The notes beneath the pieces are model-generated. The model was not told the origin of the DNA, did no database searches, and was given only the letters and a program-made list of their open reading frames with translations. A stretch of 25,499 nucleotides of DNA from a virus (taxonomy: Duplodnaviria > Heunggongvirae > Uroviricota > Caudoviricetes), in IMG/VR virus record IMGVR_UViG_2671180429_000007, one strand, 5' to 3'. A program made the position numbers and the translations under genes. Positions 48 to 8,915 of the stretch are shown piece after piece (within the stretch, counting starts at the first letter, position 1; each line of letters begins with the position of its first letter).

Positions 48-1043
48 GTGACCGTGAGAGCACTACTGACCCCTGAAATTGCCCCGCGTATGGGGATCGT
101 ATTGTTCAGGCCAGGTTCAGAGCTGATGCCCCTGTTTATGCAGGGGCGTGTCCTGCTGGAGCCAGAGCCGGAACGTTATTCATCTTTCGCCAGTGGTGCC
201 GTTCCGGCGGCAACACAACCGCTGGCGGATGATCCTGCCGTTCGGACCGTGTTCCGCAATGAGGCAGTGATCCGTCGTGCTGGTGGCGTGGAATGTCATG
301 AAAGCTGGTTACTTCGTGAAAAGGGCTGTCAGTGGCCTCATTCTGACTGGCACAGCGAGAACATGACCACAATGCGGCACGCTCCGGGAGCAATTCGTCT
401 GTGCTGGCACTGCGATAACCAGCTGCGTGACCAGTTCACGGAACGGCTGGAATCAATGGCAACGGATAACTGTGCCCGCTGGGTGTTGTCTGTCGTGCGT
501 CGGGATCTCGGTTTTGATGACAGTCACGTTGTGACAATGCCGGAACTGTGCTGGTGGCTGGTTCGTAATGATCTGGCGGATGCCTTACCGGAAAGTGCAG
601 CCCGTAAGGCACTGAGATTACCGAAGCCTGTTGTGCCATCTGTCACCCGGGAAAGTGACCTTGTGCCTTCGGTTCCTGCCACCAGCATCATCCAGGATAA
701 GGCGAAAAAGGTGCTGGCGCTGAAAGTGGATCCGGAGTCGCCGGAGTCTTTTATGTTACGCCCAAAACGTCGCCGCTGGGTTAATGAAAAGTACACGCGC
801 TGGGTTAAGACGCAGCCGTGTGCATGTTGTGGAAAGCCTGCTGATGATCCCCACCATCTGATAGGCCACGGTCAGGGGGGAATGGGTACAAAAGCGCATG
901 ATCTCTTTGTGTTGCCTTTGTGCAGAAAGCATCACGACGAGCTGCATGCGGATACCGTGGCATTTGAAGAGAAGTATGGCTCCCAGCTGGAGTTGATATT
1001 TCGTTTTATCGATCGTGCGCTGGCAATTGGTGTGCTGGCCTGA
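48..1043 (+). CDS. DUF968-like phage protein (YdfU-like) with C-terminal Cys/His-rich motif
   Basis: 331-aa ORF. C-terminal block (RPKRRRWVNEKYTRWVKTQPCACCGKPADDPHHL...LCRKHHDELH) resembles, from memory, the DUF968 proteins found upstream of Q in lambdoid prophages. Start is uncertain: GTG at 48 with a poor RBS, in-frame stop at 21..23. Confidence 0.6.
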   Translation: MTVRALLTPEIAPRMGIVLFRPGSELMPLFMQGRVLLEPEPERYSSFASGAVPAATQPLADDPAVRTVFRNEAVIRRAGGVECHESWLLREKGCQWPHSDWHSENMTTMRHAPGAIRLCWHCDNQLRDQFTERLESMATDNCARWVLSVVRRDLGFDDSHVVTMPELCWWLVRNDLADALPESAARKALRLPKPVVPSVTRESDLVPSVPATSIIQDKAKKVLALKVDPESPESFMLRPKRRRWVNEKYTRWVKTQPCACCGKPADDPHHLIGHGQGGMGTKAHDLFVLPLCRKHHDELHADTVAFEEKYGSQLELIFRFIDRALAIGVLA

Positions 1044-1045
1044 TT

Positions 1046-1417
1046 TTGTGGAGAAAGTTGATGCGTGATATGTATGAAGTAATGGATCGTTGGGGAGCTT
1101 GGGCTGCTTCAGACAATAGCGGAGTGGACTGGCAGCCGATAGCGGCTGGTTTCAAGGGACTTTTACCTCATGGCAAAAAGTCACGGATTCAGTGTGATGA
1201 TGACGAAGGCATCATGATAGACAGTTGTGTGGCTCGGTTGAGAAGGTATAAACCAGAGGAATATGAGCTCATCATCGCCCACTTTGTTATCGGTATCTCA
1301 TTACGCACTATTGCGAAGAAGAGAAAATGCTCTGATGGCACAATTAGGAAGGAACTGCAAACTGCAATGGGGTTTGTTGACGGCTGTTTAGCAATGTTAG
1401 CTTATAGTATGGCATAA
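1046..1417 (+). CDS. Q-type late-gene antiterminator (small Phage_antitermQ-like form)
   Basis: 123-aa ORF immediately after the DUF968 gene. Motifs (RWGAWAA...WQPIAAGFKGLLP...C..D....C..) match my recollection of the small antitermination protein Q family of lambdoid prophages. Position upstream of the lysis cassette fits. Confidence 0.65.
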   Translation: MWRKLMRDMYEVMDRWGAWAASDNSGVDWQPIAAGFKGLLPHGKKSRIQCDDDEGIMIDSCVARLRRYKPEEYELIIAHFVIGISLRTIAKKRKCSDGTIRKELQTAMGFVDGCLAMLAYSMA

Positions 1418-2611
1418 AAAATAAAATAGATTTACTGCCGATTTTTCAAAAAAGACTGGGAACTGTTTATATCCAACGTAAATAAGGCCTCCATAAAACA
1501 TGGCTGATGCGAGATATTTAACAGTTCTCATCCTTTTTTTAGCTTTATCAATCAAACCTGTAATGCTACTCTTAATACTATCTGCATTATCTTTGATTTC
1601 TTTATTTTCTTCAAACTTTAAATACTTATCGAAAGCGGACTCCACTCGAGAACGTAAGTTGTCGAATGTTTCATTGAATATCTCAATAGAAATGTAATTG
1701 ACTTTTTTTATCATCCAAAGTCCTGCGATAATCAATATTGCTTCGGTTGTTTCATTAGCCTTCACTAAGCCACCAGCAGCTATTAATGCACCGGGAATAG
1801 TCAATGCTTTTGTCTGATTAGATGATATGAATTCGTTAATTTTACTCGTGAACTCAAGATTTTTCTCATCGAGTTCGTTAAGAATTTTATTTACAGAAAA
1901 CCTCTTTGTGTAAATCTCATATAGTTCATCATATTTTTTCCTGACGAGTTCAGTAGAGTTAAGCAAGTCAAAGAAATTGAACGTACCATTTGCTTTAAAT
2001 ACTTCGTTTATGGCTGAGCGTATAACGAGCTTGCGCTCGCTTTTGTGTAAATCATTGATTTTTATTGTGTCGAGAAGCTCCTTTATAATTTCATATTTAA
2101 GAGACGAGTTCGATAAGCGATTAATCTCGCTATATTGTAAAAAATGCGTGAGTTCGACTGTATAACTTTTGTCTTCATTGGTGAAAAATAAGACAGAGCA
2201 GTCACTGTTATGATGATCAGCAATTAATGAAAGGATATCTTTCCACATAAAGAAAATATGGATTTTTTCGATGCTTTCATTCTTAGAAGTAGGGAGTATT
2301 AACGGCGTTCCGATGATATAATTTTTCGGAAGAGCGTTTTGGGTGTTTACTCTAGACCAAAAAGACTCAACATTCTCATAAATTATAGCGTCATCCCAAG
2401 ATGAAGCTTGGCGATCTAGCCAAATTTCATTATTTTCGATGCAGGTTGTTGCCTTTTTATAACCTATAGATTGTAACAGTCTAATTATTTCAGAACTATT
2501 TACAATAACAATGCTTTCTTCAAGACTTATGACAGTGTAGTAGCCCTCAACTCTGCTTGAGGCTCCGTTAATAATCTGCGCTAATCTTGATAAGTCATCA
2601 GCAATTGTCAT
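1397..2611 (-). CDS. Hypothetical protein with C-terminal hydrophobic (likely membrane) segments; second gene of AT-rich two-gene moron
   Basis: 404-aa ORF, visibly AT-rich, K/N/I/E-rich. Start codon at 2611..2609 lies 2 nt after the stop of the upstream gene (2616..2614). Hydrophobic stretches ALTIPGALIAAGGLV, AILIIAGLWMI and YLASAMFYGGLIYVGY near the C-terminus. I recognise no family. 3' end overlaps the Q gene 3' end by 21 nt, convergently. Confidence 0.6.
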   Translation of the reverse strand: MTIADDLSRLAQIINGASSRVEGYYTVISLEESIVIVNSSEIIRLLQSIGYKKATTCIENNEIWLDRQASSWDDAIIYENVESFWSRVNTQNALPKNYIIGTPLILPTSKNESIEKIHIFFMWKDILSLIADHHNSDCSVLFFTNEDKSYTVELTHFLQYSEINRLSNSSLKYEIIKELLDTIKINDLHKSERKLVIRSAINEVFKANGTFNFFDLLNSTELVRKKYDELYEIYTKRFSVNKILNELDEKNLEFTSKINEFISSNQTKALTIPGALIAAGGLVKANETTEAILIIAGLWMIKKVNYISIEIFNETFDNLRSRVESAFDKYLKFEENKEIKDNADSIKSSITGLIDKAKKRMRTVKYLASAMFYGGLIYVGYKQFPVFFEKSAVNLFYFLCHTIS

Positions 2612-2613
2612 TA

Positions 2614-3789
2614 TTAGCTGTCTCTATATCTTTTGAGTTCATCATAATTTGCCTGACTCAATTTTATCACAATTTCGCATTTGTTGTCAGTGAGAATTAC
2701 AGGCTTATTTGACTTTTCGTCTCCAATAGCTCCACGCATTATTTTCAACTTAAAATTATTGTCGTTATCTGCCACTTCAATTGTAAGCGCGCTTTCAGCT
2801 GCTTTAGGAGTTGGTTCAAATTGAGGGTCAATCTGGAAACCATTAAGATTAACAAAATCGACAAACGTTCCCTTACATTTGTGTGAATCAGTCAGGCATG
2901 AGTCAATTATTTTTGAAATATCCTCTATCTTAACGGACTTATTTCCGTGTTTATCTTTTGATTTTTTTTCCAGTAAGGATTTAACTTCATTGTCAATAGT
3001 ATCACGCAGTACACGACCGAGTGAGTTTTTACTAGCAAAAATATCTATAGCACTGAATAATTGCTGAATGCTTCTTTTATTGTCCGAATCATGTCGGCAA
3101 CCTAATGAGTCTTTGAAAAAATCGCTTTTAGATTTACCTTGCAAGAAATGTACATATGAGTCACCCTTGTTTTCTGGATAACTGGCTTCGAATAAAGTTA
3201 AATCGAACATCGCAGCCTGCCGTAAGGCATCGGTATTAATTGGATTTAATCTTGTTGGGGTCAACTTATCCGAATCAAAGTCATAGGCGCTTTGTTTATC
3301 AACCATTACGATTAGAAGTTTCCCCAAATCCTCTGGTTCGGTAGACTTATAGTGGATGAAAACAACGCTCCCCCCCTGAAGTTGGGCAACTCTCGATTCG
3401 TTATTAGCATTATGTTTAAGCTTCTCTATTATAGCTCTAGATAAATCAATGAATTCATTATTTTTATTAATGTATTTTTTTAGGATCGTAGGAATGGATG
3501 AAGGGTTGTGATCTGAGTCTAGGAAGTTATGAAATTTGTTTTTTCGGCTAAATTTTTTCTCAATTCTGGTTATGAATTCAGATGTGACTTCATTTTTTAG
3601 ATCCCAAACTTCACCTAATCGATAATCAAATGCTCTTGAATCATTTTTTTCAAGATTTGCTGTTACAGCACCAATAGGAAAGTACGATTGTTTGCCCAGC
3701 ACTACAACATGAGGCGTGGCACCGCATTTATCGCAAGCTACAGTTGGGTCGTCAAGAACATTGCCACATTCTAAACAAGTTATATCCAT
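2614..3789 (-). CDS. Zinc-ribbon protein with NdpA/YejK-like (NA37) nucleoid-associated domain; first gene of AT-rich two-gene moron
   Basis: 391-aa ORF, AT-rich. N-terminus has CxxC...CxxC (CLECGNVLDDPTVACDKCG). Central block GGSVVFIHY...LLIVMVDKQ...AMFDLTLFE...YVHFLQGKSKSDFFKDSLG resembles my recollection of E. coli YejK/NdpA (GGFVLFCHY...ARIDLTEWE...[22 protein letters not shown]). Needs HMM confirmation. Confidence 0.6.
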   Translation of the reverse strand: MDITCLECGNVLDDPTVACDKCGATPHVVVLGKQSYFPIGAVTANLEKNDSRAFDYRLGEVWDLKNEVTSEFITRIEKKFSRKNKFHNFLDSDHNPSSIPTILKKYINKNNEFIDLSRAIIEKLKHNANNESRVAQLQGGSVVFIHYKSTEPEDLGKLLIVMVDKQSAYDFDSDKLTPTRLNPINTDALRQAAMFDLTLFEASYPENKGDSYVHFLQGKSKSDFFKDSLGCRHDSDNKRSIQQLFSAIDIFASKNSLGRVLRDTIDNEVKSLLEKKSKDKHGNKSVKIEDISKIIDSCLTDSHKCKGTFVDFVNLNGFQIDPQFEPTPKAAESALTIEVADNDNNFKLKIMRGAIGDEKSNKPVILTDNKCEIVIKLSQANYDELKRYRDS

Positions 3790-3801
3790 TATATATCCCG
3801 A

Positions 3802-3842
3802 ATTATAAGAATGAATTTTTATGTGGCTGAAAATTCTATCAA
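3802..3842 (-). promoter_or_regulatory. Candidate sigma70-type promoter region for the minus-strand moron operon
   Basis: On the minus strand a perfect TATAAT (plus-strand coordinates 3807..3802) lies about 12 nt upstream of the ATG of the 2614..3789 gene. A TTGATA element (3842..3837) lies further upstream but is not at canonical spacing to that TATAAT. AT-rich UP-like context. Not experimentally defined. Confidence 0.25.
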
Positions 3843-3906
3843 AACACTAACGCGTACGCAAAAAGTATTGTATTGTGTTAAGAGTGGTTACTTCGCCACA
3901 CAGCTT

Positions 3907-3936
3907 AAACCCGCCGTCGAGCGGGTTTTGTCGTTT
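3907..3936 (+). terminator. Rho-independent terminator, candidate tR' of the late operon
   Basis: AAACCCGC-cgtcga-GCGGGTTT hairpin (stem 3910..3914 / 3921..3925, extendable with A-T pairs) followed by TTTTGTCGTTT. Sits between the Q gene and the holin, where lambdoid phages place pR'/qut/tR'. Confidence 0.5.
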
Positions 3937-4080
3937 CTGGGCCTGGGGATTCGTTGGGCCTAGTCTATCCCGCAGTTATCCATTGGCTCGGCTTCTTTGA
4001 CGTTTCCGCTTCTGATTTGCGGTACATGATGTTTCCTCAATTTGCACCTGCTGTATCAGCGAGGTGAGAGATAACTACAA

Positions 4081-4407
4081 ATGCCTCATAACCCAAATAC
4101 TTGGCTGGAGTTGGTCCAGAGCTGGTGGCGTGGAGACACACCGCTGGGCGCAGTGATTATGTCGATCGTTATGGCTGGCTTGCGCATTGCCTATTTTGGC
4201 GGTGGTGGTGGCTGGAAGAGAAAAACGCTCGAGATTTTGCTCTGTGGCGCTCTGACGCTGACCTTTGCATCCGCGCTTGAGTATGTCGGATGGCCTAAAT
4301 CGCTTTCTGTTGCCATTGGTGGTGGCGTTGGGTTGATCGGTGTCGATGCTATTCGTGGGGCTGCAATGAGAGTAATCGGTAACAAGTTTGGTGGCTCTAA
4401 GGAGTAA
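4081..4407 (+). CDS. Phage holin
   Basis: 108-aa ORF directly upstream of the endolysin. Hydrophobic helices (AVIMSIVMAGLRIAYF, LLCGALTLTFASAL, VAIGGGVGLIGV) and charged C-terminal tail. Position is that of lambda S. Confidence 0.75.
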   Translation: MPHNPNTWLELVQSWWRGDTPLGAVIMSIVMAGLRIAYFGGGGGWKRKTLEILLCGALTLTFASALEYVGWPKSLSVAIGGGVGLIGVDAIRGAAMRVIGNKFGGSKE

Positions 4408-4410
4408 TTT

Positions 4411-4887
4411 ATGCAGGTACTAAATTCCCAGCGTAAAGCTTTCCTGGATATGGTGGCATGGTCAGAAGGAACGGATAACGGGCGACAACCGACACGTAAC
4501 CACGGTTATGACGTTATTGTCGGTGGCGAACTCTTCACTGATTACTCCGATCACCCTCGCAAACTTGTCACGCTAAACCCGAAACTCAAATCAACAGCTG
4601 CAGGCCGTTATCAACTTCTTTCACGTTGGTGGGATGCTTACCGCAAGCAGCTTGGGCTGAAAGACTTCTCTCCCAGAAGCCAGGACTCAGTGGCATTACA
4701 GCAGATTAAAGAGCGTGGCGCTTTACCGATGATTGACCGCGGCGATATTCGTCAGGCAATCGACCGTTGCAGCAATATCTGGGCTTCACTGCCGGGCGCT
4801 GGTTATGGTCAGTTCGAGCATAAGGCTGACAGCCTGATTGCAAAATTCAAAGAAGCGGGCGGAACGGTCAGAGAGATTGAGGTATGA
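4411..4887 (+). CDS. R: Endolysin, lambda R-type lytic transglycosylase
   Basis: 158-aa ORF. Sequence ([58 protein letters not shown]...) is near-identical to lambda R as I recall it. Confidence 0.9.
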
Positions 4888-5321
4888 GCAGAGTCACCGC
4901 GATTATCTCCGCTCTGGTTATCTGCATCATCGTCTGCCTGTCATGGGCTGTTAATCATTACCGTGATAACGCCATGACCTACAAAGAGCAGCGCGATAAA
5001 GCCGCATCCATCATCGCTGATATGCAGAAGCGTCAACGTGATGTAGCAGAACTCGACGCCAGATACACAAAGGAGCTTGCTGATGCTAACGCGACTATCG
5101 AAAGTCTCCGTGCTGATGTTTCTGCTGGTCGTAAGCGCCTGCAAGTCGCCGCCACCTGTGCAAAGTCAACGACCGGAGCCAGCAGCATGGGCGATGGAGA
5201 AAGCCCAAGACTTACAGCAGATGCTGAACTCAATTATTACCGTCTCAGAAGTGGAATCAACAGGATAACCGCGCAGGTTAACTACCTGCAGGAATACATC
5301 AGGACGCAATGCCTGAAATGA
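4884..5321 (+). CDS. Rz: i-spanin Rz
   Basis: 145-aa ORF whose N-terminus [30 protein letters not shown] matches lambda Rz. ATGA overlap with the endolysin stop. Confidence 0.9.
5077..5268 (+). CDS. Rz1: o-spanin Rz1 (lipoprotein), embedded in Rz in the +1 frame
   Basis: 63-aa ORF entirely inside Rz. Signal peptide with lipobox-like VVSAC followed by a proline-rich segment ([13 protein letters not shown]), as in lambda Rz1. The true start may be an internal Met. Confidence 0.7.
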
Positions 5322-5356: not shown

Positions 5357-5632
5357 ATGACTAAGCTTTATCACCGCATCTCAGCTTTTCTCTCTGGGTG
5401 CTGGGCGTTTATCACGTCTATTTCGTTCGTCATCTTTAGTTTCGGTAGCACAGCATGCTCGCTTAGTCGGGGTCTGTGGCGTGCTATTTCAGCACTAGCG
5501 CCGAAATTTTTACCTGAAAAGGTTGTTTGGCGAATTGTAGAGCGAATGTGTAGTGAGAGCGTTCGCGAGAAGATTAACGTATTTGGACGTCATCCTCGAA
5601 ATACAGGCGCATTGTGCAGTTCGTTACTGTAG
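5357..5632 (+). CDS. Hypothetical small protein, possible membrane protein
   Basis: 91-aa ORF with a strong AGGAG RBS about 7 nt upstream and an N-terminal hydrophobic segment (ISAFLSGCWAFITSISFVIFSF). No family recognised. Confidence 0.35.
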   Translation: MTKLYHRISAFLSGCWAFITSISFVIFSFGSTACSLSRGLWRAISALAPKFLPEKVVWRIVERMCSESVREKINVFGRHPRNTGALCSSLL

Positions 5633-5750
5633 TCATTACAAAGCCCATCTTTGGGTTTGGTTTGTAATTTCGCTGCTGCAATAATCACCAGAAATATGGC
5701 ATTGTAATTGGTGGTCATATGTCATACCCATCAATTACAAAGGAGCAGAC

Positions 5751-6002
5751 ATGTCATCTACAAAATTAGTTAAAACTATCCTTTTCCATGGAGATAATAA
5801 ATATGAAGTTTATGCAACCTCCGAGTACGCTGACGTAGATAGAATCATTCATTACAAGTTACGCTCATGTAAAAACACAGATGGTTCAGATGGCAAGTCT
5901 GAATCTATATGGGTTGTATATAATCCTGCTGTTCAACTACCGGATGATCTGAACTACAAAAAAGTTAGCAACATAGCTCCTTATCTTGAAAAGTTACAAT
6001 AA
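5751..6002 (+). CDS. Hypothetical small protein (AT-rich moron gene)
   Basis: 83-aa ORF, AT-rich, AGGAG RBS upstream, followed by tandem terminator hairpins. No family recognised. Confidence 0.5.
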   Translation: MSSTKLVKTILFHGDNKYEVYATSEYADVDRIIHYKLRSCKNTDGSDGKSESIWVVYNPAVQLPDDLNYKKVSNIAPYLEKLQ

Positions 6003-6021
6003 ACTTCCTTTTCCACATGCT

Positions 6022-6048
6022 AAAAGCCTCGTATTCGCGGGGCTTTTT
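6022..6048 (+). terminator. Rho-independent terminator
   Basis: AAAAGCCUCG-uauucg-CGGGGCUUUUU: stem of about 6 GC-rich pairs (one U.G) plus flanking A/T pairs, then a T-run. Lies 20 nt after the stop of the 5751..6002 ORF. Confidence 0.5.
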
Positions 6049-6060
6049 ATTGTCATTACA

Positions 6061-6087
6061 AAAGCCACTCCCTACAGAGTGGCTTTG
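6061..6087 (+). terminator. Second hairpin, possible bidirectional terminator
   Basis: Perfect 10-bp inverted repeat AAAGCCACTC / GAGTGGCTTT with 6-nt loop CCTACA, followed by TTTG. Confidence 0.4.
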
Positions 6088-6214
6088 ATAATGGTTTATA
6101 CCCTACACGGGATAACTTAACTGATATCCCTTTTAACGGATAAACGGAGCCAACAATGGCAGAGAATGTCGGCATTATGGCAGTTAAATTTGGATAAATC
6201 GGAGATTAGTACAT

Positions 6215-6565
6215 ATGCCGCCACGAATCCCGAAAGCCTGCCGTGCTCGAGGTTGCCGTAATACCACCACTGACCCGTCAGGCTATTGCGAAAGCCACAA
6301 AAGCGAAGGCTGGAAGCAATACAAACCTGGACAATCCCGTCATCAGCGCGGCTACGGTTCGAAGTGGGACAGTATCCGCGCGCGTGTCCTGAAGCGTGAC
6401 AAAGGCCTGTGTCAGTTATGTCTGCGTTCTGGTGTGGTGCGTGAGGCGAAAACTGTTGACCACATCATCCCTAAAGCGCATGGCGGCACTGATGCTGACA
6501 GTAATCTGCAGAGTCTGTGCTGGCCGTGTCATAAGGCGAAGACGGCCCGTGAACGGTTAAAGTGA
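6215..6565 (+). CDS. HNH endonuclease (terminase-associated)
   Basis: 116-aa ORF with Cys-rich N-terminus and HNH motif (VDHIIPKAHGGTDADSNLQSLCWPCHKAK). Lies immediately upstream of the terminase genes, as in HK97-like phages. Confidence 0.85.
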   Translation: MPPRIPKACRARGCRNTTTDPSGYCESHKSEGWKQYKPGQSRHQRGYGSKWDSIRARVLKRDKGLCQLCLRSGVVREAKTVDHIIPKAHGGTDADSNLQSLCWPCHKAKTARERLK

Positions 6566-6681: not shown

Positions 6682-7185
6682 GTGCCGCATATGGCTGGAA
6701 CGGCGGGGCGTTCCGGGCGTCGCCCCAAGCCAACGGCGCGCAAGGCGCTGGCCGGAAACCCCGGCAAGCGAGCCCTGAATAAAGATGAACCTGTTTTTAC
6801 GCCCATCAAAGGTGTTGAGCCACCGGAGTGGTTCGCAGAAGAAAATCTCCCTCTCGCCACGATCATGTGGCAACTGACAACCAAAGAACTCTGCGGTCAG
6901 GGCCTGTTGTGCGTGACTGACCTCGCGGTGCTTGAGCGGTGGTGCGTGGCCTATGAGTTCTGGCGACGTGCCGTGAAAAATATTGCCATACAGGGCAACA
7001 CCATCACCGGTGCAATGGGCGGCAGGGTCAAAAATCCGGAGCTGACCGCCAAAAAAGAACAGGAGTCCGAGATGAGCAGCACGGGGGCAATGCTCGGACT
7101 CGACCCCAGCAGCCGCCAGCGTCTGATTGGCCTGGCGGGGCAGAAGAAAGCCACTAACCCGTTTCTGAAAATCATCGAGTCATGA
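6682..7185 (+). CDS. Terminase small subunit
   Basis: 167-aa ORF directly upstream of, and overlapping (ATGA), the large terminase. Basic N-terminus. Resembles the P27-family small terminase. Confidence 0.75.
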
Positions 7186-8915
7186 GCCGGAAATCTTACC
7201 CCAACGTAAATGCTGCCAATCAGTATGCCCGTGATGTTGTGCGCGGAAAGATTGTGGCCTGCCAGTTTGTGATTCAGGCCTGCCAGCGCCATCTTGATGA
7301 CCTGATGGCGGAAAAAAGTAAGTCGTTTCGTTACCGCTTCGACAAGGACCTGGCTGAACGGGCCGCCAAATTTATTCAGCTGTTGCCGCACACCAAGGGT
7401 GAGTGGGCATTCAAGAGGATGCCCATCACGCTGGAGCCGTGGCAGCTATTTGTGGTCTGCTGTGCGTTTGGCTGGGTCAATAAAGGGTCCCGGCTGCGCC
7501 GCTTCCGGGAGGTGTATACCGAAATCCCCCGTAAGAACGGCAAATCGGCAATCTCTGCCGGTGTTGCCCTGTATTGTTTTGCCTGTGATAACGAGTTTGG
7601 CGCGGAAGTGTATTCCGGTGCCACGACAGAGAAACAGGCGTGGGAAGTCTTTCGCCCGGCGCGACTGATGTGTAAACGCACACCCATGCTGACGGAAGCG
7701 TTCGGGATTGAGGTTAACGCCTCAAACATTAATCGTCCGGAGGATGGCGCGCGGTTTGAACCGCTGATCGGTAACCCCGGTGATGGTTCATCACCCCACT
7801 GTGCGGTGGTGGATGAATATCACGAGCACGCCACCGATGCGCTTTACACCACGATGCTTACCGGGATGGGGGCGCGACGTCAGCCACTGATGTGGGCCAT
7901 TACTACTGCCGGGTACAACATTGAGGGGCCGTGCTACGACAAGCGACGGGAAGTTATCGAGATGCTCAACGGGTCGGTACCCAACGATGAACTGTTCGGG
8001 ATCATCTATACCGTTGACGAAGGCGATGACTGGACCGACCCGCAGGTGCTGGAAAAAGCTAACCCGAATATTGGCGTGTCGGTTTATCGCGAATTTTTGT
8101 TAAGTCAGCAGCAGCGTGCGAAAAATAACGCCCGTCTGGCAAACGTCTTTAAAACAAAACACCTCAATATCTGGGTGTCGGCGCGTTCGGCGTATTTCAA
8201 CCTGGTGAGCTGGCAGAGCTGCGAGGATAAATCACTGACCCTTGAGCAGTTCGAGGGGCAGCCGTGCATTCTGGCCTTTGACCTGGCGCGTAAGCTGGAT
8301 ATGAACAGCATGGCGCGACTTTATACCCGCGAGATTGACGGTAAAACGCATTACTACAGTGTGGCTCCGCGCTTCTGGGTACCGTATGACACGGTGTACA
8401 GCGTCGAGAAAAATGAAGATCGCCGGACAGCCGAACGCTTTCAGAAATGGGTGGAAATGGGCGTTCTGACCGTTACCGATGGTGCGGAGGTGGATTATCG
8501 CTACATCCTCGAGGAGGCCAAAGCGGCGAACAAAATCAGCCCGGTCAGTGAGTCACCCATCGACCCCTTCGGGGCGACCGGGTTGTCACATGACCTTGCT
8601 GATGAAGACCTGAATCCCGTCACTATCATTCAGAACTACACCAACATGTCCGACCCGATGAAAGAGCTGGAAGCGGCAATTGAATCGGGGCGCTTTCATC
8701 ATGATGGCAATCCCATCATGACCTGGTGTATCGGCAATGTGGTCGGCAAAACCATTCCGGGTAACGATGATGTGGTGAAACCCGTCAAAGAGCAGGCGGA
8801 AAACAAAATTGACGGTGCAGTTGCGCTGATTATGGCGGTTGGCAGAGCCATGCTGTACGAGAAAGAAGACACGCTGTCTGACCACATTGAGTCCTATGGG
8901 ATCCGCTCGCTTTAA
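7182..8915 (+). CDS. Terminase large subunit
   Basis: 577-aa ORF, position and size typical. ATPase region ([18 protein letters not shown]) and a C-terminal nuclease-like acidic region. Confidence 0.9.

Follow-up and report, generated by a model that had tools for sequence, protein, structure and literature searches.

A probable late control module of the Q21/Q933W type downstream of a reverse-oriented DS-1 cassette in an Escherichia coli prophage

Among the described late control regions closest to the one reported here are those of phage VT2-Sakai/933W, the source of the small RNA (sRNA) StxS, and of phage 21, whose Q antiterminators belong to the Pfam family PF06530 (bioRxiv 10.1101/651190). 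For VT2-Sakai, Sy et al. (2020, PMC7547250) used differential RNA sequencing (dRNA-seq) to map the PR' start, which lies 258 nt before the 3' end at a second terminator, and the promoter is described as always active, with Q altering termination and not initiation. The phage 21 record gives a -35, Q-binding elements (QBEu/QBEd), a -10, a start, a pause element at +2..+8 and a terminator at +3..+50, and the antitermination mechanism of this phage has been solved by cryo-electron microscopy (cryo-EM). We analysed a 25,499-nt stretch of DNA (IMG/VR record IMGVR_UViG_2671180429_000007; hereafter the window), which comes from a lambdoid prophage of E. coli, and focused on the intergenic region between a reverse-strand anti-phage gene pair, DS-1, and the holin gene. 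We conclude that 3837-3936 is very probably the late-gene control module of a lambdoid prophage with a Q21/Q933W-family Q. The module type is already known; what is unusual is its position, 2461 nt from Q with an opposite-strand DS-1 cassette between them.

The late control module upstream of the holin gene

A BLAST search with the intergenic region showed that 3837/3841-3929 is common to many lambdoid phages with differing flanks, including SfII, SfIV, Stx2a_1447, cdtI, PA-2, 434B, phiP27 and many Stx phages. The homology began at 3841 in SfII, at 3837 in Stx2a_1447 and at 3816 in cdtI, and in all cases examined the common piece lay downstream of a Q gene from the same Pfam family and ahead of the late genes, often with other genes between Q and the piece. 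An alignment of eight phages revealed an invariant run, TGTTAAGAGTGGTTACTTCG(C/T)CACACAGCTTAAACCCGCCG, followed by the remaining hairpin and T-run, with more variable sequence upstream. VT2-Sakai was alignable with the window through the -10, the core TAAGAGTGGTTAC and the first hairpin with its T-run (81.6% identity over 3881-3929), and in its record the homologous stretch carries the labels 'putative late promoter', 'putative Q-utilization' and 'possible rho-independent terminator'. In the window itself, the Q protein encoded upstream on the same strand covered 115 of the 118 PF06530 profile positions and weakly matched the Q21 structures 6P18/6JNX, and the same-strand genes downstream of the module are the lysis genes. 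The original prediction, made from the sequence without database searches, had held that pR' and the Q-utilisation site must lie within 3790-3940 if the hairpin there was tR'; this was borne out by the homology to the mapped Sakai module and by the broad conservation. The comparison with phages of the same Q type that it had proposed yielded the Sakai alignment and a similar layout in phage 21.

The core also served as the search pattern for IMG/VR, its invariance being measured only in the BLAST-found phages and VT2-Sakai. This search returned 120 loci and, together with the annotated phages, yielded 128 modules with full context, of which 76 were unique. TAnnnT was found at the -10 offset in 68 of the 76 unique modules, CAGTAT, which keeps A2 and T6, in seven, and TATTGC in one; the window carries a sigma-70 -10 hexamer there, which aligned with the -10 end of the annotated Sakai promoter. 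The -35 position, weak in the window, is occupied by TTTACG or TTGTGT in other Q classes. Counting back from the T-run of the second Sakai terminator placed the Sakai start at 540-543 of locus L008, within AAGAG, which corresponds to 3881-3884 of the window, so that the pR' start is most likely A3883, 7 nt after the -10 hexamer. In the PA-2 record (J02580.1, L004), a CRP-binding site annotated in 1986 at 1531-1551 lies exactly over the conserved early core (GAGTGGTTACTTCGTCACACAG); it was set aside as a weak half-site match, only the TCACA half fitting the CRP consensus well.

The plus-strand pR' elements, which the original prediction had been unable to place with confidence, could be located by homology as far as the -35, the palindrome, the -10 and the start are concerned; the pause element could not. 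AAGAGT, followed by GGT, is the sole universally conserved -10-like hexamer, and its spacing to the palindrome agrees with that between QBE and pause element in phage 21, with the hexamer overlapping the predicted start. TACTTC aligned with Sakai TACATT within the 'putative Q-utilization' stretch; its last three bases vary among modules and its T6 is not conserved.

The predicted terminator consists of the stems AAACCCGC (3907-3914) and GCGGGTTT (3921-3928) around the loop CGTCGA, followed by the T-rich tail TTTTGTCGTTT up to 3936. Its hairpin had a folding energy of -12.0 kcal/mol, and the leader 3881-3936 folded with -19.6 kcal/mol (z = -2.7). A terminator pattern scan of 2500-5000 gave three sites against 2.2 expected, which is not significant alone. 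In nearly all related modules, however, a hairpin and T-run followed about 46 to 69 nt past the core AAGAG (position 1 = window 3880), with stems that vary yet pair (CCCGC/GCGGG, CCCGCC/GGCGGG, CCTCGC/GCGGGG, CCGCCA/TGGTGG, CCCTGCC/GGCGGGG). Because the hairpin and T-run are conserved across modules through differing, still pairing stems, tR' stands above chance, and this pattern has the look of a selected terminator. In phage 21 the T-run sets in at +43; with 542 taken as the Sakai start and 3883 as that of the window, it sets in at +43 to +44 in these two. Because the phage 21 terminator is annotated at +3..+50, completion within about 50 nt appears to be the norm in the Q21/Q933W family. 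The intrinsic terminator at 3907..3936, which the original prediction had described as tR'-like and about 140 nt upstream of the holin, is present as a hairpin with a T-run 145 nt before the holin start at 4081, and its reading as a tR'-type late terminator is supported by the homology and the conserved position.

The leaders were folded one by one. RNAalifold on 23 leaders was not usable for the terminator, because MAFFT misaligned the variable terminator stems, and returned only the 5' stem GUGGU/GCCAC, with no compensatory changes. In the window, this possible small hairpin (GUGGU-UACUUC-GCCAC, 3884-3899) would hold the three most variable bases of the core in its loop, and the partner of G3887 (the fourth pair) is C, U or A among relatives; the hairpin does not appear clearly selected. 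A core variant, TAAGTGTGCTCAC in place of TAAGAGTGGTTAC, occurred beside the same DS-1 cassette and palindrome (L133, L134, L139, L142, L150 and others) and weakens this 5' stem; TAAGCGTGGTCAC and TAGGGGTGGTCAC are further variants. An Rfam scan of 1300-4500 at E <= 1 gave no match. The coordinates of the features are collected in Table 1.

Table 1. Genes and predicted control elements in the window (positions are those of the 25,499-nt stretch)
Feature	Position	Strand	Basis
DUF968/HNH gene	48-1043	+	
Q antiterminator gene, 123 aa, Q21/Q933W family	1046..1417	+	Pfam PF06530, E = 3e-47
DS1_2 anti-phage gene, 404 aa	1397..2611	-	NCBIfam NF053869 equivalog
DS1_1 anti-phage gene, 391 aa, nucleoid-associated (YejK/NA37-like), leading the cassette	2614..3789	-	NCBIfam NF053868, Pfam NA37
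Intergenic region, 291 nt	3790-4080		between DS1_1 and holin
Shine-Dalgarno-like GGGA, 6 nt before ATG at 3789	3796..3799	-	read from sequence
TATAAT, less likely -10 of the cassette promoter	3802..3807	-	best -35 at 17 bp is TTCAGC (3/6)
TTGATA (3842..3837), 16 nt, AAAAAT (3820..3815), alternative candidate cassette promoter	3815..3842	-	9/12 in scan
Probable late control module (pR', Q-loading region, leader, tR')	3837..3936	+	homology
A-tract upstream of -35, putative UP-like element	3841..3844	+	most modules, cargo-bearing or not, are A-rich at this offset
Weak -35-like CTAACG (3/6), 18-nt spacer to -10	3847..3852	+	read from sequence
Palindrome GCGTACGC (3852-3859) and AAAAA (3860-3864), candidate Q-binding element	3852..3864	+	covariation with Q cluster
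pR' -10 hexamer TATTGT	3871..3876	+	aligns with -10 end of annotated Sakai promoter
Invariant core TAAGAGTGGTTAC, start site and early transcribed region	3879..3891	+	eight BLAST-found phages and VT2-Sakai
AAGAGT, then GGT, candidate sigma-dependent pause element (A2, T6)	3880..3885	+	sole universally conserved -10-like hexamer
Predicted pR' start, most likely A3883	3881..3884	+	transferred by alignment from Sakai dRNA-seq start
TACTTC, second candidate pause element	3889..3894	+	aligns with Sakai TACATT
Intrinsic terminator tR', 8-bp stem, 6-nt loop, tail TTTTGTCGTTT	3907..3936	+	predicted RNA about 47-54 nt
Holin S gene	4081-4407	+	Pfam Phage_holin_3_1 and Phage_lysis and TIGR01594, for the lysis genes 4081..5321 together
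Lysozyme gene	4411-4887	+	see holin S gene
Rz gene	4884-5321	+	see holin S gene

Q-linked palindromes and the cargo slot between Q and pR'

Every module carried a perfect palindrome and then an A- or T-tract shortly before the -10 region, and the palindrome differed between modules, with eight different perfect palindromes occupying one offset at -31..-19 from the predicted start (L010-L129 and the window). When the linked Q proteins were clustered at 75% identity, each Q cluster paired with one palindrome type. The cluster of the window Q had (C/T)GCGTACGC in 18 of 18 cases, one with a flanking change; a second cluster had GCGGTCCGC, the 933W/DLP12 cluster had TACG(A/T)(T/A)CGTA, and smaller clusters had TGTTATAACA, TGTCATGACA, GGAATTCC and TTCGTTACGAA. 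Both TACGTACGTA and TACGATCGTA were among the eight. Within the window's cluster, the palindrome was constant, the Q-to-core distance took 15 values (1431-2924 nt), and the cargo and the genes past the terminator varied. Since the palindrome changes with the Q cluster and is constant within it, we took it as the candidate Q-binding site, and the palindrome with its A-tract at 3852-3864 is likely the Q-binding element.

These elements suggest the following course of events. RNA polymerase with sigma-70 would start at pR' near 3883, constitutively if the window promoter behaves as its Sakai homologue does. Without Q, the hairpin 3907-3928 would form and transcription stop in the T-run, leaving an RNA of about 50 nt and the lysis genes from 4081 silent. 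After induction, Q would be made from the early rightward transcript, would bind the class-specific palindrome and A-tract, as the covariation suggests, and, by analogy, would load on polymerase paused in the first ~20 nt. It may then narrow the RNA exit channel and block the hairpin, as shown for Q21, so that read-through would reach S-R-Rz and the structural genes. On the other side, 3790-3836 and the upstream edge of the module would supply the cassette with its own sigma-70 promoter and leader directed away from pR', which would allow expression of the defence genes in the lysogen independently of the late switch.

The distance between Q and the core was bimodal, either 0-40 nt or 626-3043 nt, and the core was displaced from Q in 72 of 103 related loci. 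In 62 of these 72, most of the long open reading frames (ORFs) of the cargo were on the minus strand, antiparallel to Q and the late genes; the loci do not count as independent events, because many of them belong to near-identical DLP12-type prophages. The cargo comprised lc/nmpC porins, unnamed gene pairs (SfII, Stx2a_1447, cdtI, with a gap of 3-23 nt after Q), a plus-strand GIY-YIG gene (phiP27) and, in the window, DS-1. The gap between Q and pR' is a recurrent cargo slot.

We put forward one tentative joint proposal, which we regard as possible rather than probable: that short Q933W-like Q proteins (about 120-145 aa) recognise class-specific palindromes near -27.5, that the gap at a portable pR' module is a general lambdoid cargo slot for reverse-oriented defence or conversion genes, and that the conserved leader of about 50 nt has a role of its own as an sRNA. 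If it is true, the palindromes would imply a symmetric Q pair, as against the head-to-tail Q21 pair on a direct repeat, and reverse-oriented cargo would be expressed in the lysogen, and the switch to lytic growth would expose it to antisense early transcription. The eight palindromes matched to Q clusters offer a directly testable specificity code for the Q family.

The DS-1 cassette, its promoter and rival readings

Judged by its protein family matches, the gene pair that the original prediction had called a moron is the two-gene DS-1 anti-phage system. DS1_1 scored 451 bits against NF053868 (cut-off 330) and DS1_2 375 bits against NF053869 (cut-off 315), the two genes being adjacent on one strand; NCBIfam names the products 'nucleoid-associated anti-phage protein' and 'anti-phage protein', respectively. 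DS1_1 has an N-terminal CxxC...CxxC motif and a YejK/NA37-like domain, and the DS numbering comes from DefensePredictor, among whose newly validated defence domains is the YejK nucleoid-associated domain. PADLOC 2023, which has no model for them, gave no match for either cassette protein. The GC content was 0.30-0.39 over 1400-3800 (about 0.33 in the cassette) against 0.48-0.60 in the flanks (about 0.52), a composition expected of a moron, and two consensus-level promoter candidates precede the cassette (3842..3815 and 3807..3802); no minus-strand terminator-like site was found at or below 1397. All 37 DS-1 loci found in IMG/VR, including homologues at 46-47% identity, adjoin a GCGTACGC-type module, and no DS1_1 relatives were confirmed in the species-representative genome set. 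In L009 (E. coli O103 WL1467, 3296-4291), the annotated DS1_1 gene lacks about 60 codons at the 3' end relative to the 391-aa ORF of the window; it is probably frameshifted, because a 3502-nt match to the 3501-nt query implies a 1-nt indel. The original prediction had correctly seen the moron diverge from the late control region, the cassette lying on the minus strand and pR' on the plus strand, and had missed both its anti-phage identity and the recurrent Q-pR' cargo arrangement.

The best minus-strand promoter-like site in our scan, TTGATA-16-AAAAAT, would start transcription near 3808 and give a leader of about 19 nt that includes GGGA. We consider it more likely to be the cassette promoter than the TATAAT favoured by the original prediction, neither of the two being statistically supported. 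A TTG(A/T)(T/A)N hexamer stands next to the palindrome in all DS-1 contexts as well as in SfII and Stx2a_1447 with other cargo, reading TTGTAT or TTGTAC in distant DS-1 homologues, TTGTAA in SfII and TTGTAT in Stx2a_1447; its conservation may be partly due to the A-tract serving pR'. The rival reading takes TATAAT at 3807..3802 as the -10 of the DS-1 promoter, with an mRNA that would begin about 5-7 nt before the ATG (3796-3794) and be nearly leaderless. This hexamer is a perfect consensus, lies exactly 12 nt (3801..3790) from the ATG at 3789, as had been claimed, and is conserved in DS-1 relatives whose DS1_1 is 92-100% identical; in SfII, which carries other cargo, CATAAT stands at a similar position ahead of the Shine-Dalgarno sequence. 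However, such a start would fall downstream of GGGA (3799..3796), itself at ribosome-binding-site distance, and would leave it out of the mRNA; the -35 at 17 bp matches at only three of six positions; and L156/L157, with a DS1_1 protein 90% identical and a different leader, lack TATAAT and keep TTGATA. TATAAT is also common in the AT-rich block 1400-3840, which holds six of the 11 copies in the window, a total not above chance (7.25 +/- 2.4 expected; 11 reached in 10 of 100 shuffles), and a second copy (3793..3788) overlaps the ATG itself. We therefore regard TATAAT as a rather unlikely promoter for the cassette. Across all cargo types there was no common minus-strand promoter position; the best matches scattered, save for a symmetric TTTACG in the DLP12 class. 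In DLP12/PA-2-type loci (L003, L004, L005 and others), the palindrome TACGTACGTA is flanked by A/T runs, and the minus strand reads TTTACG-17-GATATT, a mirror-image promoter-like site toward the porin gene that has the palindrome in common with pR'.

Two further rivals concern the module itself. The late promoter might lie right after Q, inside the 3' end of the cassette, with late transcription running antisense through the 2.4-kb cassette and 3837-3936 serving only as a terminator or attenuator. A pR' directly after Q is the textbook arrangement, and in many relatives the core does lie 0-40 nt after Q. In the window, however, the end of Q overlaps the 3' end of the DS1_2 coding sequence by 21 nt, leaving no room for a pR' beside Q, and the only core motif begins at 3879, 2461 nt after the Q stop at 1417, with two reverse-strand genes between. 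Since the palindrome, -10 and core also stay linked to the hairpin, past the cargo, in all relatives that have cargo, we consider a promoter beside Q extremely improbable. It is less far-fetched, and still quite unlikely, that the hairpin at 3907-3936 is inefficient in vivo and acts mainly as a promoter-proximal pause or RNA-stability element, the lysis genes being silenced through Rho or a weak pR'. The T-run of the window is interrupted (TTTTGTCGTTT), and a 258-nt RNA that extends to the second terminator has been detected in Sakai (PMC7547250), which indicates that its homologous first hairpin (-12.6 kcal/mol, seven T's) is passed by some polymerases without Q. Against this, the hairpin and T-run keep their position in nearly all modules despite differing stems, and the phage 21 terminator at +3..+50 was annotated from experiment (PMID 1704887). 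A leaky site would moreover risk expression of the lysis genes, there being no second terminator before the holin in the window. Column kits lose RNAs of about 50 nt. Because the Sakai RNA was prepared with such a kit (PMC7547250), the absence of a ~50-nt species there is uninformative.

Several points nevertheless weigh against reading 3837-3936 as a complete Q-dependent late control module. The pR' -35 is poor (3/6) and there is no extended -10; promoter-like matches for the cassette (9 against 4.6 +/- 2.2 in shuffles) were not more frequent than in shuffled sequence; and no convincing sigma-dependent pause element could be placed, AAGAGT sitting on the start and TACTTC having no conserved T6. 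The association between palindrome and Q may be partly linkage, because both lie within 3 kb. The phage 21 QBE is not a palindrome but a direct repeat of TGAGCA (ATTGAGCA/AATGAGCA) at -27..-12, whereas the window element is a palindrome centred near -27.5, and no such direct repeat is present between -35 and -10 in the window; nor is phage 21 DNA alignable with the window module. The homologous first hairpin of Sakai, as noted, is read through at some rate without Q. The start, pause and termination point of the window prophage are all predictions from sequence comparison.

The original prediction had also suggested that Q-modified late transcription might occlude the moron promoter. This was not upheld: pR' points away from the cassette, and because the promoters diverge and Q, to judge from the always-active Sakai PR', changes termination, late transcription should not run over the cassette promoter. 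Coupling of two other kinds is possible. Q bound at 3852-3864 would lie about 45-55 bp upstream of the cassette start, and early transcripts that extend beyond Q would enter the cassette in antisense; directly after Q no plus-strand terminator was found, the only terminator-like sites (2026-2039 and 2408-2423) lying inside the cassette.

At least 80% of 1000-4500 was present in about 100 complete E. coli genomes, and this region was 100% identical to the chromosomes of several Shiga toxin-producing E. coli (STEC) strains, O103:H2 among them. The analysis places a predicted late transcription start in this prophage type. In relatives such as Stx2a_1447 and phiP27, stx is under the control of the same module, and for this reason Q-type-specific recognition sequences would bear on the toxin yield of Q/pR' pairs. 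A validated anti-phage system in the recurrent Q-pR' slot also provides a landmark for further defence genes in lambdoid prophages.

Beyond Rz, a second low-GC stretch (0.36-0.37) extends over 5600-6200 and holds an 83-aa ORF (5751-6002), preceded by a 91-aa ORF (5357-5632), with no Pfam match for either; it may represent a further gene insertion, between the genes for lysis and those for packaging. An HNH endonuclease gene (6215-6565) directly precedes the genes for the small (6682-7185) and large (7182-8915) terminase subunits, the usual arrangement for HNH-assisted packaging.

Comparison with described late control systems

Phage 82 was rejected as a reference. The window Q was first taken as 82-like, and Q82 proved to be a 229-aa protein of PF06323 without similarity to it. 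The 82 pR' features (-10-like hexamer at +9..+14, GCC at +15-17, U at +25) were tried on the window, and the 82-type pR' sequence was unrelated: the pR' after a 97%-identical Q82 (TGATATTTTGCC...) shares none of the window's motifs and agrees in full with what is published for 82 (TGATATTTT followed by GCC at +15-17, with G at +24 and T at +25). Phage 82 and the window would thus have only the functional logic in common. The same is true of the lambda pR'-6S RNA-tR' region, in which, as proposed here, the late promoter is constitutive, a short leader RNA is terminated and Q loads at a pause close to the promoter; its Q belongs to PF03589, its leader is 194 nt long and its pause element is AACGAT at +1..+6, with no sequence similarity to the window. 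A literature search with core sequence strings returned chance matches only.

Phage 21 is nearer, with a Q of the same Pfam family, although the 162-aa Q21 is only distantly related to the window Q (E = 0.001). The elements predicted in the window follow the same compact order as those of phage 21: a -35, the Q-binding region, a -10, the start and the pause region, then a terminator that ends by about +50. The -35 of phage 21 is a perfect TTGACA, in contrast to the weak one in the window, and phage 21 has no cargo between Q and pR'.

VT2-Sakai/933W has a Q of the same family with 46% protein identity to the window Q. Its module follows Q after 17 nt, compared to 2461 nt in the window, its palindrome is TACGATCGTA instead of GCGTACGC, and it is followed by tRNAs and stx, whereas the window module is followed by the holin gene. 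StxS derives from a PR' transcript of about 258 nt with a 3' part of 74 nt that contains the seed and ends at the second terminator; this terminator, at +258, and the regulatory 3' part are absent from the window, where only the first 48 nt of StxS_L match (3881-3929).

The arrangement of the window is paralleled in PA-2 (lc) and DLP12/434B (nmpC), in which a same-family Q is followed by a reverse-strand lysogenic-conversion gene and then by the same core and hairpin, holin and lysozyme. The cargo is a porin there and a defence pair here, the Q class and palindrome (TACGTACGTA) differ from those of the window, and the intergenic region measures about 400 nt compared to 89 nt in the window. This common arrangement indicates that the cargo slot is old and recurrent. 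With the module type itself already described, we regard the Q-type-specific palindromes and the recurrent, mostly reverse-oriented Q-pR' cargo slot as the more interesting by-products of the comparison.

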